Of a DNA stretch of 46,495 bases, positions 11,961-18,217 are shown piece by piece. The notes beneath the pieces were generated by a model, which saw only the letters and a list, made by a program, of their open reading frames with translations, was not told the DNA's origin and searched no databases. The position numbers and the translations under genes are program-made. The stretch is from Minisyncoccia bacterium (GTDB lineage Bacteria > Patescibacteriota > Minisyncoccia > Phycocordibacterales > Phycocordibacteraceae), in contig JBAQWN010000002.1 of assembly GCA_049298935.1 (NCBI GenBank), forward strand, positions 1 to 46,495. Direction: 5' to 3'. How positions within the stretch are numbered: the first letter of the stretch is position 1; each line of letters starts with the position of its first letter.

Positions 11961-12623
11961 ATGAGTACGAGGAAAACGGTTTTTGCGAATGGAGAATTTT
12001 ATCACGTGTACAATCGTGGGGTTGATAAGAGAATTATTTTTTCCGACAATTACGACGCGCAAAGGTTCTTCAAGAGTATGGTTGAATTCAACACGGCCAA
12101 TCCGATCGGGAGCCTGTACGAGAATTCATTTCATCAATTTGGCGGTGAAACCGCCAAGTCAGAAAAGAGGTTAGTTAATATCATTGCGTACTGTCTTAAC
12201 GTAAATCATTTTCACATCATCTTGGAGCAATTGATTGATGGCGGTATTAGTGAGTTTATGAAAAGAATCGGAGGGTACACATGGTACTTCAATAATAAAT
12301 ATAAAAGGAGCGGGTCTTTGTTTCAGGGGGCATTTAGAGATGTTCATATTGATTCGAACGAGTATCTTCTTCATGTAAGTGCATATGTAAATTTAAATGA
12401 CCGTGTTCATCAACTTGGCGGTGAAACCGCCAAGTTGATCGCGAATATGTCGAGCTGGGAAGAGTATACGGACAATGGGCTTAAGGGAATTTGCAAAAAG
12501 GAAATTATTTTAGGACAATTTAAAAATATTGATGAGTACAAAGAGTATGCACTCTCGTCGCTGGAATCAATTATAAAAAGAAAAGAAGATTTGAAAGATC
12601 TCGATAAGTTTCTACTCGAGTAG
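11961..12623 (+). CDS. HUH-Y1 transposase-like protein (IS200/IS605 TnpA / REP-associated tyrosine transposase family)
   Basis: N-terminal FYHVYNRG. HUH motif NHFHIIL (H83, H85). KRSGSLFQGAFR block. Tyr region SAYVNLN (Y142), corresponding to the YIHLNP of COG1943-type proteins. Confidence 0.75.
   Translation: MSTRKTVFANGEFYHVYNRGVDKRIIFSDNYDAQRFFKSMVEFNTANPIGSLYENSFHQFGGETAKSEKRLVNIIAYCLNVNHFHIILEQLIDGGISEFMKRIGGYTWYFNNKYKRSGSLFQGAFRDVHIDSNEYLLHVSAYVNLNDRVHQLGGETAKLIANMSSWEEYTDNGLKGICKKEIILGQFKNIDEYKEYALSSLESIIKRKEDLKDLDKFLLE
12137..12159 (+). repeat. Palindromic element copy 2 (inside the transposase CDS, in frame)
   Basis: TTTGGCGGTGAAACCGCCAAG at 12138-12158. Perfect 7-bp stem, plus one G-U wobble and one A-T pair, with loop TGAAA. 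Translated as F-GGETAK-S (aa 60-67). Confidence 0.95.
12409..12439 (+). repeat. Palindromic element copy 3 (inside the transposase CDS, in frame)
   Basis: ATCAACTTGGCGG-TGAAA-CCGCCAAGTTGAT: perfect 13-bp stem. Core at 12414-12434. Translated as L-GGETAK-L (aa 152-159). Confidence 0.95.
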
Positions 12624-12651: not shown

Positions 12652-12701
12652 GAGGGTGGACGTGCTGTGCATAATGTCACTAACATAGCGTGGTGAGGGG
12701 C

Positions 12702-12707
12702 TATAAT
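12702..12707 (+). promoter_or_regulatory. -10-like TATAAT, 11 nt upstream of ATG 12719
   Basis: Consensus hexamer in the 95-nt intergenic region. No SD between it and the ATG. Confidence 0.4.
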
Positions 12708-12718
12708 GAACGAACAGC

Positions 12719-14212
12719 ATGTCACTCTATTTCTTTGCAAATAATATCCACTTCGCGCTCGCACTTCTTGGTGCTGTTGTGATGTTTATGGCGGCATGGC
12801 TCACCTTCGACACCTACTCAGTGAGCAAGGAGACGAGAATACTCTTCCGAACGCTTGGCTTTGCGCTCTTCGCTTTGTGGCAGATTATCATAGCGGTCGC
12901 TAGCGGGAACGACGTGCTGTCATTTGTCGGATTCTCCATTCTTATCATCGGGCTCTTGTGCCTGCTTGGGAGTTTCTTTGGTGGCGAACAGCTTGCGATG
13001 CCCGCAGTTCTTATTATTCCGTCATTCGCGACCTTCGCTCCCGCGCTCTCTGCGGTCGAGGCATTTCTCCTTATCGCCATTGCTCTTGTTGCGTATCGAC
13101 TCTCAAAAAGGGAGTTCAATAAGACGTGGAAGTCGTTCTATGTCGCCTTCGCTCTCCTCGGCATAAGCCAAATCTTTTTAATAGGCGCGCACGGAGATAG
13201 TGCAAGTCTCTTCGCTCTCGCGAGCGAGGCGCTCTCGCTCGCGGGATTCCTCTACCTCTTTGCCTGGGTGTGGCAGTTTCTTGCACTACGCATCCGTGAA
13301 AGCTTGGTAATTATTTTTATCTCGGCGGCAATCTTCCTTTCGACGGTTGTGACGCTCGCGTTTTCAACTATTCTTATCGCGCAGATAACGAGTCAGACAC
13401 AGACAAGTCTCCTGACCGACGCGCGCGTGCTTGATCTCGATATTCAGGCATTGAAGCAAGCATCACTTGTTGAAGCAACTCTCCTTGCGATGGATCCACA
13501 GCTCATGAGTGCTCTCGCCACAAATGATTTCAAAACACTCCAAGCAAAAACAGAAAGTTTTATGGAGAAATATAATCTCGGCTTCGTTACCGTTACCGAT
13601 GCGCAAGGCACCGTGCTTATCCGCGCGCATGCACTCTCACAGCGCGGCGACTCTCTTGTGGGAGAGCGAGCCTTTGAAGAGGCTCGGGCGGGTGTGGCCT
13701 TTGTCACGATAGAGGAGAGTCCGGTAGAGAAACTCTCTATCCGCGCCGGTGCGCCGGTAGAGCAGAAAGGGAAGGTTATAGGCACAGTCGTCGCTGGCTA
13801 CCCGCTCGACAACGCTCTTGTTGACGGCATCAAGCGCGTGACGGGTCTCGATATGTTTATCTACCAAGGTGCAGTGTCGGTCGCCGCAACAGCCTTTGCG
13901 CGCGACGGGAGCACTCGACTTACCGGCTTGCCACTTCAGGACTCTGCAACCGAGCAGTCGGTGTTGGTTGGTGGAGAGAGCGTTACGACTCACGTGAGCA
14001 TCAGAGAACAATCGTTCCTCTCGAGCTATCTGCCGCTCACAAATGGCGACGGTAAGATTGTCGGTATGCTGTCGGCGGCGAAGCCCGAGCAGGATATTCT
14101 CGATCTCGTAAATGCTACCAACCAGCTCACGCTCATAACGATTATTATCGTTATGCTCGTGTTGACCTTCCCGATCTATATCTTCGCGAAGCGACTGACC
14201 GATGAGGCATAA
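12719..14212 (+). CDS. Multi-TM membrane protein with an extracytoplasmic Cache/PDC-like sensor region and no output domain
   Basis: About 7 hydrophobic helices in aa 1-225. Then a ~235-aa soluble alpha/beta region, one terminal TM (LTLITIIIVMLVLTFPIYIF) and a stop 9 aa later. The Cache assignment is by architecture only. Confidence 0.55.
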   Translation: MSLYFFANNIHFALALLGAVVMFMAAWLTFDTYSVSKETRILFRTLGFALFALWQIIIAVASGNDVLSFVGFSILIIGLLCLLGSFFGGEQLAMPAVLIIPSFATFAPALSAVEAFLLIAIALVAYRLSKREFNKTWKSFYVAFALLGISQIFLIGAHGDSASLFALASEALSLAGFLYLFAWVWQFLALRIRESLVIIFISAAIFLSTVVTLAFSTILIAQITSQTQTSLLTDARVLDLDIQALKQASLVEATLLAMDPQLMSALATNDFKTLQAKTESFMEKYNLGFVTVTDAQGTVLIRAHALSQRGDSLVGERAFEEARAGVAFVTIEESPVEKLSIRAGAPVEQKGKVIGTVVAGYPLDNALVDGIKRVTGLDMFIYQGAVSVAATAFARDGSTRLTGLPLQDSATEQSVLVGGESVTTHVSIREQSFLSSYLPLTNGDGKIVGMLSAAKPEQDILDLVNATNQLTLITIIIVMLVLTFPIYIFAKRLTDEA

Positions 14213-14218
14213 AAATAT

Positions 14219-15658
14219 ATGAACATACGCACAAAACTCGCTCTCACCTTCTCCTTCGTCACCATCCTGATAGGGTCGGGAGTATTTCTATATCTCGATT
14301 CATATTTCACCACAGGACTGATCAGTAAAGTAGAAAACACTTTGCGTGTCGCGGCTGAAGGGAGCGAGGGCCTCTATTTCGGTTTTATAGAAAGTGTAAA
14401 CACGAGAACTGTTGATTGGGGCTCAGATGGTCATATTAGAAACACTACTCAAAAATTGGTTAGCCAGAAGACCTCTGCAAAAGAAAAGAGCGCTATCGCC
14501 ACTGAGCTCGGTGTGTATTTCAAAGAAAATAAAATGTTATATGATCCGACCGTTATCATAATGGACGTCTTGGATAGCAGGGGTATTGTTATCGCTTCGT
14601 CGCAAGAAAATAGAATTGGTCTCAATGATGGTGAAGAAGAAAAGGATCTCAAGATTAGATTTAGCGAGGCGATAAAGGCTTCTCTCGGTGAGTCTTTTGC
14701 TATTGACGCGAATAATGAGGGGTATGACGGTACCAATCGAACTACAAATGCTACAACACGAATTTTTTCTACTGACACTGGTGTTGACGGGGTTGTTCTA
14801 CCCCTGAATGCTGTCTTGCTACTACATTTCTCGAGGAACAATCAGATATCAGACATACTCACGGGCGCCTTTCAGATTAGTCTGGGAGCGCTCACGGGCA
14901 ATGCTCTTGCGCAGACGTATAGGAGTGAAGAGATATATTTGGTAGATAAAGAAGGCTCAATTATCACTAATCCTTCTAATACAAGAAGTGATCATCCTTC
15001 TCTTAATAAGAAAGTGAGCAAGTATTTGGTTGAGACGTGCTTTAAAGAAAACAGAGAAATAGCTGAAGAATATACAAATTATGATGGTGCTAAGGTCTTT
15101 GGCGCGACTATGTGCATCAAGAGGCATGGCGTTATGCTCGTTGCAGAAGTGCTGTCGAGCGAAGCTCTCGCCACACTTACTCAGACGAGGCGAACGATTA
15201 TTCTCGGCATCTTACTCACGGTCATGGCAACTATTGTGTGTAGCATACTATTTAGCAGTATCATTCTTAAACCCCTTGATACTATGGTGCTCGTCGCCAA
15301 AAATATTTCTCATGGGAAGTTCGACATGCGCGCACAGGTTAAGTCTAAAGATGAGTTCGGGTACCTCGCGACCGTGTTTAATGAGATGCTTGACGCTATT
15401 GAAAAATCGCGGCAGGGATTAAAAGAGGCTGAGGCACAGTTGAAGGACACTAATATTGCCCTTGAACAGCGAGTGAAAGAGCGCACGGCGGAACTAGATG
15501 AGCTGAAGTCTGGGCTAGAAGAAGAAGTTAATAAAAAGACAGGTCAATTGCAACAGAAACTGGCAGAATTGGAAAAATTCAAACAACTCACGGTCGGTCG
15601 AGAGCTGATGATGGTCGAATTAAAAAAAGAAATTTTAAAGTTAAAAGATAAATCTTAA
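14219..15658 (+). CDS. TM-sensor-TM-HAMP-coiled-coil protein without kinase/MCP/GGDEF output
   Basis: TM1 LALTFSFVTILIGSGVFLYL, then a ~290-aa extracytoplasmic region, then TM2 IILGILLTVMATIVCSILFSSIIL. HAMP-like segment KPLDTMVLVAKNISHGKFDMRAQVKSKDEFGYLATVFNEMLDAI. Signalling-helix-like coil (LEQRVKERTAELDEL...) to the C-terminus. Confidence 0.7.
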   Translation: MNIRTKLALTFSFVTILIGSGVFLYLDSYFTTGLISKVENTLRVAAEGSEGLYFGFIESVNTRTVDWGSDGHIRNTTQKLVSQKTSAKEKSAIATELGVYFKENKMLYDPTVIIMDVLDSRGIVIASSQENRIGLNDGEEEKDLKIRFSEAIKASLGESFAIDANNEGYDGTNRTTNATTRIFSTDTGVDGVVLPLNAVLLLHFSRNNQISDILTGAFQISLGALTGNALAQTYRSEEIYLVDKEGSIITNPSNTRSDHPSLNKKVSKYLVETCFKENREIAEEYTNYDGAKVFGATMCIKRHGVMLVAEVLSSEALATLTQTRRTIILGILLTVMATIVCSILFSSIILKPLDTMVLVAKNISHGKFDMRAQVKSKDEFGYLATVFNEMLDAIEKSRQGLKEAEAQLKDTNIALEQRVKERTAELDELKSGLEEEVNKKTGQLQQKLAELEKFKQLTVGRELMMVELKKEILKLKDKS

Positions 15659-15663
15659 GATCT

Positions 15664-16404
15664 ATGAATACATCTGCAAACAATTATGATGAGGCTGTTG
15701 AAATAGCTCCGGGAATTTATTGGGTTGGGTTTTATGATAAGGATGCGATTTTTTCTTGCAATCCGTATCTCATTGTCGACGGCGACGAGGCTATCTTGAT
15801 AGATGGTGGATCGCTCGGGCATTTCCCCTTTGTGGCGAGAAAAGTTTTTAGCATCATTGAGCCGTCAAAAATAAAAAATCTCATATTGCACCATATGGAC
15901 CCAGACCTCTGCGCGTCCATGCCTCTTTTCCAAAATATTATCGATAACAAAGATCTTCAGGTCATTTCTCACTATCGCGCGTCGCTCCTGATAGCGTATT
16001 ACTCTCAAGAGAAAATGAATTTCTATTATCCAGAAAAAAACGATAATATATTCAGATTTTCGTCAGGGAGAACATTACGATTTATTCCTGCTCACTATCT
16101 TCACACGCCGGGCACTATTAACACGTATGATGAGAAGACGAAGATCTTATTCTCCTCAGACATTTTTGGTGCGTTTACGCCGAAATGGGAGCTATACGCT
16201 GATAAAGAGTATCCAGAGAAGATGAGAACATTCCATGAAAATTACATGCCATCCAACAGAATCATGGAACAATATCTGGACCGAATAAAAAAGTTAGATA
16301 TCGAGATGATTTGTTCACAGCACGGATCGATTATTAAGAAGGATCTTGTTGATCAATCAATACGGGCATTGGGAAATTTTGAATATGGAAAGTATATGGA
16401 GTAA
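15664..16404 (+). CDS. Stand-alone FprA-type metallo-beta-lactamase-fold (di-iron) domain protein, ODP-like
   Basis: It aligns by eye along its whole length with the N-terminal domain of flavodiiron proteins: IAPGIYWVG, NPYLIVDGDEAILIDG, LHHMDPDL (vs NH-x-E-x-DH), LHTPG (vs LHWPD), FSSDIFG (vs NDAFG), SQHGSII (vs PSHGII). There is no flavodoxin domain. Confidence 0.75.
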   Translation: MNTSANNYDEAVEIAPGIYWVGFYDKDAIFSCNPYLIVDGDEAILIDGGSLGHFPFVARKVFSIIEPSKIKNLILHHMDPDLCASMPLFQNIIDNKDLQVISHYRASLLIAYYSQEKMNFYYPEKNDNIFRFSSGRTLRFIPAHYLHTPGTINTYDEKTKILFSSDIFGAFTPKWELYADKEYPEKMRTFHENYMPSNRIMEQYLDRIKKLDIEMICSQHGSIIKKDLVDQSIRALGNFEYGKYME

Positions 16405-16408
16405 GCGT

Positions 16409-17779
16409 ATGTTTTTTAAACATGAAAAAGATCATCAAATAAAATCTCTCACGAAAGAGCTGTCAATGGAGCGCCTCAGTGCTTTTGCTGATTCGTTCTT
16501 AAGAAAGCAAGAGCGCAGATTATTATTTGAAGTAATGAAAAATGCATCTGATTTGCGCAGATTGAAGAAATTAACCGATGGGTTTGCCACACAGAACGAG
16601 CTGTTGAACCAGACAGAGCTCGCGATGCTTAATTTGCTCGATGACGCCAAACTTCTAGAAGGGAAGCTTGAGATGGAAAAAGAAAGTGTTGAGCGCAAGG
16701 TCGTCTTGCGTACGCAAGAGCTCGAGGTCGAGCGGTCCCGTCTCTTTGCTTCTATCAACAGTCTCTCGTTTGGCTTTATCATCGTTGATATGAATCATCG
16801 CGTCCTTCTTGAGAATAATGCGATGATGCAACTCTTTGGTTTTTCTGATAAAGATGAAGTCACTATTGAAAATATTTCAAACCTCCTAGGTGAACACTTC
16901 GATGTCAAAATGGAGGCAGAGCGATGCGTGAAGGGTAAGGCGGTGTGTGAAATAAAAGAGATTATTTTTGGTACAAAATTTCTTCGCGGTATTATTGCTC
17001 CCGTTCTCTCGGGCACCGCTGATGAGAAGGTCGGTTACGTCTTCCTGCTTGAAGACATTACGGAGGCTAAGGTGATGGAGAGGAGTCGTGAAGAATTTTT
17101 TGCGGTCGCCAGTCACGAGCTCCGTACGCCACTCACGGCTATTCGTGGCAACGCGGATATGATTTTGAGCATGTTTGCAGACAAAATAGTCGATAAGGAT
17201 ATGAAAGAGATGCTTGAAGATATTGACACGTCGAGCGTGCGCCTGATTTCAATCGTGAACGACTTCTTAGAGGTGTCGCGCCTCGAACAGGGGAGGGTTG
17301 AGATCAAGAAAGAAGATTTCGATATATCGCTCATGGTGGAGAGAGTTGTGCGCGACCTAAAGACTATGGTCGAGCAAAAAGGCTTGTCTATTGTCTATAC
17401 CGCACCTACCTCTCCTATGCCAATGGTGCGTGCCGATAAAAATAAAACAGAACAGATTCTTCTGAACCTTGTTGGGAATGCGGTGAAATTTACCAAAGAG
17501 GGCGGTATTACGGTTACTACGACGGTGGCAGACGGTTTTGTTACTACCCAGATTATTGATACTGGCACAGGCATTTCAGAGCATAATCAGTCGCTTCTCT
17601 TTAGAAAGTTTCAGCAGGCAGGAGAGCAGATGCTTGCGCGGGACGTGACCCAGAGCACTGGTCTCGGTCTGTACATTTCTAAGCTCATTATCACGAACAT
17701 GGGCGGTACCATAGGGCTTTCGAAAAGCGAGTTTGGCAAAGGGAGCACGTTCTTCTTTACCTTACCAATAGTGGTATAG
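16409..17779 (+). CDS. Soluble sensor histidine kinase (coiled coil - PAS - HisKA - HATPase_c)
   Basis: Start chosen at ATG 16409 because GGAG (16398-16401) lies 7 nt upstream. H-box FFAVASHELRTPLTAIRG, N-box LLNLVGNAVKFT, G1 DTGTGI, G2 GLGLYIS. No TM segment. Confidence 0.85.
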   Translation: MFFKHEKDHQIKSLTKELSMERLSAFADSFLRKQERRLLFEVMKNASDLRRLKKLTDGFATQNELLNQTELAMLNLLDDAKLLEGKLEMEKESVERKVVLRTQELEVERSRLFASINSLSFGFIIVDMNHRVLLENNAMMQLFGFSDKDEVTIENISNLLGEHFDVKMEAERCVKGKAVCEIKEIIFGTKFLRGIIAPVLSGTADEKVGYVFLLEDITEAKVMERSREEFFAVASHELRTPLTAIRGNADMILSMFADKIVDKDMKEMLEDIDTSSVRLISIVNDFLEVSRLEQGRVEIKKEDFDISLMVERVVRDLKTMVEQKGLSIVYTAPTSPMPMVRADKNKTEQILLNLVGNAVKFTKEGGITVTTTVADGFVTTQIIDTGTGISEHNQSLLFRKFQQAGEQMLARDVTQSTGLGLYISKLIITNMGGTIGLSKSEFGKGSTFFFTLPIVV

Positions 17780-17791: not shown

Positions 17792-18217
17792 ATGGCTAAA
17801 CTATTTATGGCAGAAGACGATCCGCTCATGAGCCGTATGTATGAGCGGGCATTTCGCCTTGGGGGGCACGAGCTCACGATGGCGCACGACGGTGAAGAAG
17901 CCGTCACACTTTTGCTGAAGGCAGATCCAAAGCCGGAGGTCATTATGCTCGATATCATGATGCCGAAGCTAAATGGCTTTGACGTTTTGCGCAAGGTCAA
18001 AGAAGACGAGAAGCTTAAACGCGTTCCTGTCATCATGCTCACCAACCTTGCGGGTGAAGCGGATGCTGAAAAGGCTCTCGGTCTCGGCGCCGTGCTCTAT
18101 CTCGTGAAGAGTCAGTATGATCCGAAAGAGATCGTCAGTAAAGTGCAGGAGATCATTGCGGCTTCGTCGCGCGGAGACAATGTGCCCGCAGTCACCGTCG
18201 AGGTGAAGAAGAGTTAA
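17792..18217 (+). CDS. Single-domain response regulator (REC only, CheY-like)
   Basis: Acidic pocket EDD (aa 8-10), phospho-acceptor D in VIMLDIMMP, T in IMLTN, K in YLVKS. At 141 aa there is no output domain. Confidence 0.85.
   Translation: MAKLFMAEDDPLMSRMYERAFRLGGHELTMAHDGEEAVTLLLKADPKPEVIMLDIMMPKLNGFDVLRKVKEDEKLKRVPVIMLTNLAGEADAEKALGLGAVLYLVKSQYDPKEIVSKVQEIIAASSRGDNVPAVTVEVKKS

Follow-up and report, generated by a model that had tools for sequence, protein, structure and literature searches.

The locus described here raises the question of what a small metallo-β-lactamase (MBL)-fold protein senses, and through which partner it reports, when its gene stands immediately upstream of a histidine kinase gene in a very small bacterial genome. 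The gene lies on the plus strand of a 46,495-nucleotide (nt) stretch of a Minisyncoccia bacterium (Patescibacteriota; GenBank assembly GCA_049298935.1, contig JBAQWN010000002.1, positions 1 to 46,495), and this whole stretch, at its full length, is called the window hereafter. A sequence-only reading had described the product as a stand-alone domain of the flavodiiron type with an altered di-iron ligand set, which might bind a single metal or have a tuned O2 affinity. Sequence and predicted structure instead place the gene as a normal member of the known oxygen- and iron-sensing family of oxygen-binding diiron proteins (ODPs), and the protein probably serves as the input of the adjacent kinase. 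The finding is mostly a correction, in that the metal site is not unusual; what is new is the setting in a minimal genome that has one kinase, an ODP of apparently lateral origin and the seemingly chimeric kinase head. The gene in question is:

15664-16404, plus strand: ODP gene (246 aa), a predicted stand-alone di-iron MBL-fold sensor protein of Pfam family PF19583 (open reading frame (ORF) list, Pfam, Protein Data Bank (PDB), AlphaFold2 (AF2) and Foldseek)

The ORF, its residues and its coordinates proved exact in a codon check, and the gene is real, having 464 database matches at E <= 1e-10 and a confident alignment-based AF2 model (mean pLDDT 94.6, pTM 0.92). The Pfam ODP model (PF19583) matched with 210.6 bits (E 2.5e-62; curated cut-off 27.2 bits) over its whole length, model positions 1-194 of 194, and the generic Lactamase_B model gave only 48 bits; these two were the only domains found by the Pfam scan of the 246-aa protein, in which no flavodoxin domain was detected, and the transmembrane (TM) profile displayed no TM segment. 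By searching the PDB with the sequence, the best matches were two pairs of entries, both named ‘oxygen-binding diiron protein’ (6qrq/6qwo, E 5.6e-32; 6qnm/6r9n, E 5.1e-25), while flavodiiron proteins (FDPs) appeared at E 1e-11 and weaker, and the NCBIfam FDP models scored 51 and 36 bits versus cut-offs of 635 and 711. Foldseek comparison of the AF2 model with the PDB ranked seven ODP chains at the top (entries 6qrq, 6qwo, 6r9n and 6qnm; TM-scores 0.77-0.84 for these seven and 0.74-0.84 over the best ODP matches), followed by FDP cores; according to their titles, the ODP matches comprise a Zn form from Thermotoga maritima, an apo form from Treponema denticola, and apo and ‘peroxy diiron’ entries that name no species. 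The resemblance to the N-terminal domain of FDPs without the flavodoxin domain, noticed from the letters alone, was therefore confirmed, with solved ODPs matching far better, and the suggested ODP-type stand-alone di-iron MBL domain was supported concordantly by Pfam, PDB sequence, AF2 and Foldseek. FDPs are defined by an H-x-E-x-D-H motif plus a C-terminal flavodoxin domain; here the motif is H-M-D-P-D-L and the chain, a stand-alone MBL fold of ~250 aa nearest to the solved ODPs, ends at residue 246.

The metal site is read from four segments of the gene:

15892-15906, plus strand: motif H77-M78-D79-P80-D81, holding three metal-ligand positions (His, Asp, Asp) (codons, alignment of 115 homologues, solved ODPs)
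16102-16104, plus strand: His147 (LHTPG), a ligand position (codon; 115/115 homologues)
16159-16161, plus strand: Asp166 (SSDIFG), the bridging-ligand position (codon; 115/115 homologues)
16318-16323, plus strand: Gln219-His220 (SQHGS), the ODP-specific Gln followed by the last His ligand (codons; 115/115 homologues)

Codons 15889-15909 encode H76-H77-M78-D79-P80-D81-L82, and in the alignment H77, D79, D81, H147, D166, Q219 and H220 were each present in 115/115 homologues. In HMMER alignments, the two solved ODPs both read H-Q-D-P-D-V, LHS(T/P)G, SGDIGA and PQHGA, where the window ODP has H-M-D-P-D-L, LHTPG, SSDIFG and SQHGS, so the ligand set H-x-D-x-D / H / D / Q-H is identical in its residues to both. 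A joint alignment with the Moorella FDP demonstrated that, in every ODP, the FDP Glu is replaced by Asp, the FDP motif-2 His by Leu, Val or Ile (position 82 among the 115 homologues: Leu 92, Val 15, Ile 7), and the Ser preceding the last His by Gln. In the T. maritima ODP this motif Gln takes the place of the missing motif-2 His (PMC7785958), and it corresponds to Gln219 of the window protein, a residue that the sequence-only reading had overlooked although it correctly listed H147, D166 and H220 as retained. Because none of the seven ligand positions is missing and none varies within the family, the site is predicted to be the canonical, standard seven-residue two-metal ODP site, altered solely relative to FDPs. 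The label ‘altered’ captures a difference from FDPs in a ligand set that is the ODP family's own, and a profile alignment with all seven ligands intact, named beforehand as the result that would speak against an altered site, is in effect what was obtained once Gln219 is counted. A single-metal site was consequently rejected, every ligand position being present, and, with an ordinary metal site, the protein gives no starting point for studying a di-iron centre that is re-tuned or holds one metal. His76 was likewise rejected as an additional ligand typical of the family: 63/115 homologues have it, but the solved ODPs do not. Position 78 is Gln in 89/115 homologues and Met solely in the window ODP and its eight closest relatives (P0001-P0009); Met78 is predicted to be a non-ligand, clade-specific residue and the sole local peculiarity of the site.

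The ODP gene is the third of five co-directional genes separated by gaps of 4-12 nt, and its neighbours are:

12719-14212, plus strand: multi-TM protein with a dCache_3 outside domain and without output domain, first gene of the co-directional cluster (Pfam, TM profile)
14219-15658, plus strand: membrane sensor without output (479 aa), made of a TM segment, an outside domain of ~295 aa, a second TM segment, HAMP and a coiled coil (Pfam HAMP, TM profile)
16409-17779, plus strand: soluble histidine kinase (456 aa), made of an N-terminal helical head, a coiled-coil linker, PAS, HisKA and HATPase_c (Pfam)
16409-16588, plus strand: kinase head (residues 1-60), a candidate docking region (BLAST, hidden Markov model (HMM))
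17792-18217, plus strand: stand-alone receiver (141 aa), the presumed phosphoacceptor of the kinase (Pfam Response_reg)

The kinase ATG at 16409 lies 5 nt past the ODP stop (4 nt between the genes), as had been noted, and is preceded by a GGAG 7 nt upstream; no TM segment was found in the 456-aa kinase by the TM profile. The TM segments of the HAMP protein span residues 5-27 and 323-354, and its coiled coil ends in ...QLTVGRELMMVELKKE.... The best promoter-like site (12680-12707) is located just upstream of the dCache_3 gene, and whether the dCache_3 protein is part of the signalling system is uncertain. Adjoining the cluster, an RAYT/IS200-like (Y1 transposase) gene occupies 11961-12623 of the window, and in a congener such a gene stands on the opposite side (L097:175-900); it may mark a rearrangement-prone spot.

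Profile searches of the whole assembly (634,188 bp, 97.6% complete) revealed a very short inventory of signalling parts. The genome encodes one ODP, one HisKA domain, which is that of the kinase adjoining the ODP, one HAMP domain, which lies in the ODP cluster, and two HATPase_c matches, namely the window kinase and GyrB; no MCPsignal domain was detected in this 97.6% complete genome, and neither hemerythrin nor rubrerythrin was found in it. Given that MCPsignal is lacking and only a single HisKA kinase was found, the known chemotaxis route of ODPs, through a soluble chemoreceptor and the CheA pathway, is excluded in this genome, and since there is no chemoreceptor, the ODP is most likely the input subunit of the adjacent kinase. 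Two receivers are encoded, the window one and a second 141-aa stand-alone receiver on contig C63 (C63:4811-5236; L088:1459-1884), which is placed between PilB/GspE-like and PilT-like ATPases and is 32% identical to the first. As the genome has a single kinase, this second receiver may be a further phosphoacceptor of it, in which case the cluster would be tied to type IV pili.

Linkage of ODPs to signalling genes was then compared among relatives. In a Ca. Wolfebacteria metagenome-assembled genome (MAG; locus L001), whose ODP is 80% identical, the order is ODP, PAS kinase, HAMP protein and receiver amid unrelated flanks; in a second Patescibacteria MAG (L002; ODP 76-77% identical), it is HAMP protein, hemerythrin, ODP and PAS kinase; and at a third related locus the ODP is followed by a receiver. 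The pair of an ODP followed by a PAS kinase is thus kept in the closest relatives (76-80% ODP identity) amid different surroundings, and the HAMP proteins of these ODP clusters are 42% (L001) and 32% (L002) identical to that of the window. A wider neighbourhood census covered 80 loci from species-representative genomes, 31 of them titled Sulfurimonas, so its counts are not independent. Among 74 ODP-bearing ORFs, 33 were fused to HisKA plus HATPase_c, 7 to REC and 6 to GGDEF, and the 56 same-strand downstream neighbours included REC in 28 cases (22 of the OmpR type), HisKA in 13, GGDEF in three and EAL in two; the same pattern of fusions and neighbours holds in other phyla, outside Sulfurimonas. 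The adjacent histidine kinase as the likely partner, proposed from the letters alone, is therefore upheld by the conserved pair, the fusions, the neighbours and the lack of a chemoreceptor. Published work agrees. As summarised in PMC7319448, Muok et al. 2019 found ODP genes that share operons with genes for chemoreceptors or for other signal-transduction proteins, as well as ODPs joined to signalling domains in one chain. PMC6978683 treats ODP as an auxiliary subunit for sensing, able to bind both iron and oxygen, whose contact with its receptor depends on conformation.

Further features were observed around ODP genes. In L002 the genes of the HAMP protein and the ODP flank a 139-aa hemerythrin gene (L002:5356-5775), so two different di-iron O2-binding folds occur within one signalling cluster there, in a manner not shared by the window genome, which is without hemerythrin. 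A conserved protein of ~100 aa is encoded directly 3′ of stand-alone ODP genes, often overlapping them, in Nitrospirota, Bacillota, Spirochaetes and Asgard archaea (L011:1523-1816, L012:5683-6000, L013:5164-5451, L014:1270-1557, L016:5702-6004, L054:5705-6037, L055:5702-6022, L064:743-1060 and L079:5692-5991), with an alignment consensus of roughly ‘MA..D.Y..LI..V.RELG.LG.EK ... ARR.NLPLP..L’. No small-protein family stood out in a pooled Pfam scan of the downstream neighbours, and the ~100-aa protein may be another kind of ODP partner. In addition, a segment of ~60 residues, ‘...INREL.EKAL.MRC.SYL.QVK..LLTETI.E...SKK’, opens the partners, kinases among them, encoded downstream of stand-alone ODPs in 11 loci from Proteobacteria, Nitrospinota and anammox bacteria (L024, L027, L032, L033, L034, L035, L037, L041, L043, L072 and L077), and weakly in a Saganbacteria locus (L008); a profile-profile comparison of this kind of kinase head with that of the window yielded a probability of 5% (E 0.007).

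Taken together, we consider it likely, by analogy with characterised ODPs, that the window protein is a canonical ODP that binds two Fe(II) ions and O2 and passes its state by contact to the soluble kinase, setting receiver phosphorylation. Muok et al. in 2019 reportedly described this biochemistry, the binding of Fe(II) and O2, for ODPs. In the window, the conformation or oligomeric state of the ODP would shift with metal and O2 occupancy, and the ODP would be an input subunit, on a chain of its own, for the adjacent soluble PAS histidine kinase, which would in turn phosphorylate the stand-alone receiver encoded beside the kinase gene, the orphan receiver in the pilus-ATPase cluster being another possible target. 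Iron and O2 binding by the window protein, its direct contact with the kinase and the output are what we infer from the ligand set and the gene linkage.

Several observations weigh against this assignment. In the joint alignment, identity to the solved ODPs is only 26-29%, and those ODPs that have been characterised act via chemoreceptors and CheA, neither of which this genome has. Nearly all genes of the window are co-directional with tiny gaps, and for this reason ODP-kinase adjacency alone is weak evidence. The kinases adjoining the closest ODPs are merely 29-31% identical to the window kinase, and the segment ‘...MRC.SYL..VK..LLTETI...’ that opens ODP partners at 11 other loci went undetected in it as well as in the L001 and L002 kinases. 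The real input of the kinase could be the membrane HAMP protein. Finally, the literature searched contained no biochemical data for the window ODP or for any ODP-kinase pair.

The distribution of the ODP among relatives pointed to an origin outside the lineage. No ODP turned up among 36 congeners and 24 other families of the same order, of which together 52/60 carry HisKA kinases, nor in 400 further sampled same-order genomes from 223 genera (E <= 1e-30). A congener whose LepA is 80% identical to that of the window and a same-order genome at 65% both have no ODP, while the first ODP-bearing MAG has an 80% identical ODP with a LepA at 44-58%, and the second a 77% identical ODP with a LepA at 46%. 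The base composition agreed with this. The G+C content is 36-47% over 14100-17700 of the window, which comprises the HAMP, ODP and kinase genes, versus 50-59% in the flanks and ~50% for the window; by gene, it is 39.3% for the ODP, 42.6% for the HAMP protein and 45.1% for the kinase, and 52-54% for the receiver, MurJ and Cache genes. A trough of 36-41% at ~15450-16650 takes in the tail of the HAMP protein and the ODP as well as the kinase head, and coiled coils rich in Lys and Glu account for some of it. Even so, the simplest reading is that the ODP was acquired laterally among distant Patescibacteria.

Comparison by segments revealed that the kinase itself looks assembled from resident and foreign parts. 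Residues 111-456 are 65.5% identical to the congener and 46% to the same-order genome, versus 27-30% to the L001 and L002 kinases, and the receiver is likewise 82% identical to the congener, where it stands next to the orthologous kinase, and 60% to the same-order genome, versus 36% to the two ODP clusters; these values mark the kinase core and the receiver as resident, vertically inherited genes. Conversely, kinase residues 1-60 have no match in the resident orthologues and are 39-43% identical to the L001 and L002 kinases (BLAST), and residues 61-110 match both sides, namely 45 residues of the same-order kinase at 38% (E 0.001) and 23 residues of one of the L001 and L002 kinases at 70%. The first 45 positions of an HMM of the kinase head were found solely in the window, L001 and L002 kinases, and when residues 1-100 were searched against a large protein database, the query was its own sole match. 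The HAMP-protein tail (residues 400-479) is in turn 58% and 47% identical to the L001 and L002 ODP clusters. Near the end of this HAMP protein (15590-15640) lies a motif, ‘QLTVGREL(K/M)MVELKKE’, that is also present in a protein of 108 aa encoded 3′ of the L007 ODP (L007:5777-6100) and in a 141-aa TM protein (L099:3893-4318, minus strand) upstream of a same-order one-piece kinase; it resembles a transferable C-terminal tail for sensor proteins that lack a kinase.

How such a split sensor compares with ODP-less builds was seen in two relatives. A same-order relative without ODP encodes a one-piece chain of 792 aa (L099:1495-3873, minus strand; TM, sensor, TM, HAMP, linker, PAS, kinase), which aligns with both the window HAMP protein and the window kinase, the HAMP protein being 38-40% identical to its N-terminal half; a congener without ODP pairs a membrane sensor of 227 aa with a soluble double-PAS kinase of 576 aa (L097:1492-3925, minus strand); and the orthologous receiver follows in both. 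The alignment with the one-piece chain supports a view of the window cluster as sensor and kinase halves kept apart, with the ODP gene at the break. In evolution, the input end of this kinase is very plastic. The idea that insertion of the ODP split a kinase gene is weakened by the ODP-less congener, which already has the separate sensor and kinase, and a contiguous cassette of tail, ODP and head is not claimed, the gene order differing among the three ODP clusters; as split sensors occur without ODP and gene order differs, we do not claim ODP insertion as the cause of the split. More tentatively, and with the balance leaning against it, this lineage of ultra-small bacteria may have rewired its single two-component system via a laterally acquired ODP module. 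With a kinase core and a receiver of vertical descent (64-66% and 82% identical to a congener), the ODP would be foreign, and so, apparently, would the first ~100 kinase residues and the HAMP-protein tail; ODP, kinase head and HAMP tail are common only to ODP clusters of very distant Patescibacteria and coincide with the G+C trough. Head and tail would be the contact surfaces joining membrane sensor, ODP and kinase, and, if this holds, O2 or iron status would control the only phosphorelay of the cell, possibly including the orphan receiver of the pilus cluster.

Against this background, other explanations of the ODP-kinase pair were weighed. The same ODP and kinase partner could serve a signal other than O2, namely Fe(II) availability through a metal-occupancy switch, NO, H2O2 or redox state. 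By its title, Muok et al. 2019 presents ODP as a sensor of both Fe(II) and O2, which would suit such a signal, as do the apo and Zn forms crystallised according to PDB titles, and the clade-specific Met78 beside the site could shift ligand preference. FDP relatives moreover react with both NO and O2 (PMC6033852). The sequence separates none of these signals from one another or from O2, but the full O2-binding ligand set of ODPs is conserved, and we regard a signal other than O2 as rather unlikely. Still less credible, and in our view improbable, is a small stand-alone enzyme that merely resides inside a signalling operon, for instance a hydrolase of the MBL type or a di-iron oxidoreductase that scavenges O2 or NO: its fold and bimetal site are common to catalytic FDPs and MBL hydrolases, and O2 detoxification would be useful to a genome without rubrerythrin and hemerythrin, yet the chain lacks a flavodoxin or any other domain for electron entry, the Asp and Gln specific to ODPs stand family-wide in place of the Glu and His specific to FDPs, and the family is systematically fused to, or encoded upstream of, kinases, receivers and GGDEF domains.

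The lateral origin invites one more explanation, that the ODP gene is a recent passenger with no working kinase link, the kinase being controlled solely by the membrane HAMP and Cache proteins. Its not being found among ~440 same-order genomes, the vertical inheritance of kinase core and receiver, and a G+C content of 39% versus ~50% for the window all accord with a passenger. An ORF that is intact and retains all ligands, a spacing of 4 nt from the kinase gene with the GGAG before the kinase ATG, and a kinase N-terminal head found only in kinases of other ODP clusters render it very improbable; because that head is limited to kinases of ODP clusters, the system seems to have been remodelled around the ODP. 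Signalling from a canonical ODP to the adjacent kinase consequently stays our preferred account.

In a 634-kb genome whose recognisable two-component parts are gathered in one cluster bar one receiver, the system would be a very simple natural case of ODP control of a histidine kinase, and the patchy, apparently lateral ODP with its chimeric kinase may illustrate how a sensor module plugs into an existing phosphorelay. Patescibacteria are usually regarded as anaerobic fermenters, and the present locus suggests that some of them monitor O2 or iron.

Among known systems, the ODPs of T. denticola (TDE2498; 6qnm, 6r9n) and T. maritima (6qrq, 6qwo) share with the window ODP the ~250-aa size, the stand-alone MBL fold and the pattern H-x-D-x-D ... 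H ... D ... Q-H, and they are likewise encoded beside a soluble, sensor-less signalling partner. They differ in that this partner is a soluble chemoreceptor plus CheA instead of a PAS histidine kinase plus a stand-alone receiver, while the window ODP has Met78 instead of the usual Gln and resides in a Patescibacteria host with a 634-kb genome. With the FDPs (FprA/ROO/NorV), the N-terminal core shares the fold (TM-score 0.8) and the His, Asp, His, Asp, His positions, whereas in the window ODP the Glu has become Asp79, the motif-2 His Leu82 and the Ser the ligand Gln219, and the flavodoxin domain is missing. A further known group is that of ODP-kinase fusions and operons, for example in Sulfurimonas, where the ODP domain is 43-47% identical over its whole length in most loci; the ligand set is the same, and the output is, as in the window, a two-component kinase and receiver. 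The pairing of ODP and kinase is already described in the literature, ODP-histidine-kinase fusions and operons having been reported by Muok et al. 2019 as far as summarised in PMC7319448; unlike in these fusions, however, ODP and kinase are separate in the window, the kinase carries a PAS domain and its own N-terminal head, and the receiver is without a DNA-binding domain.

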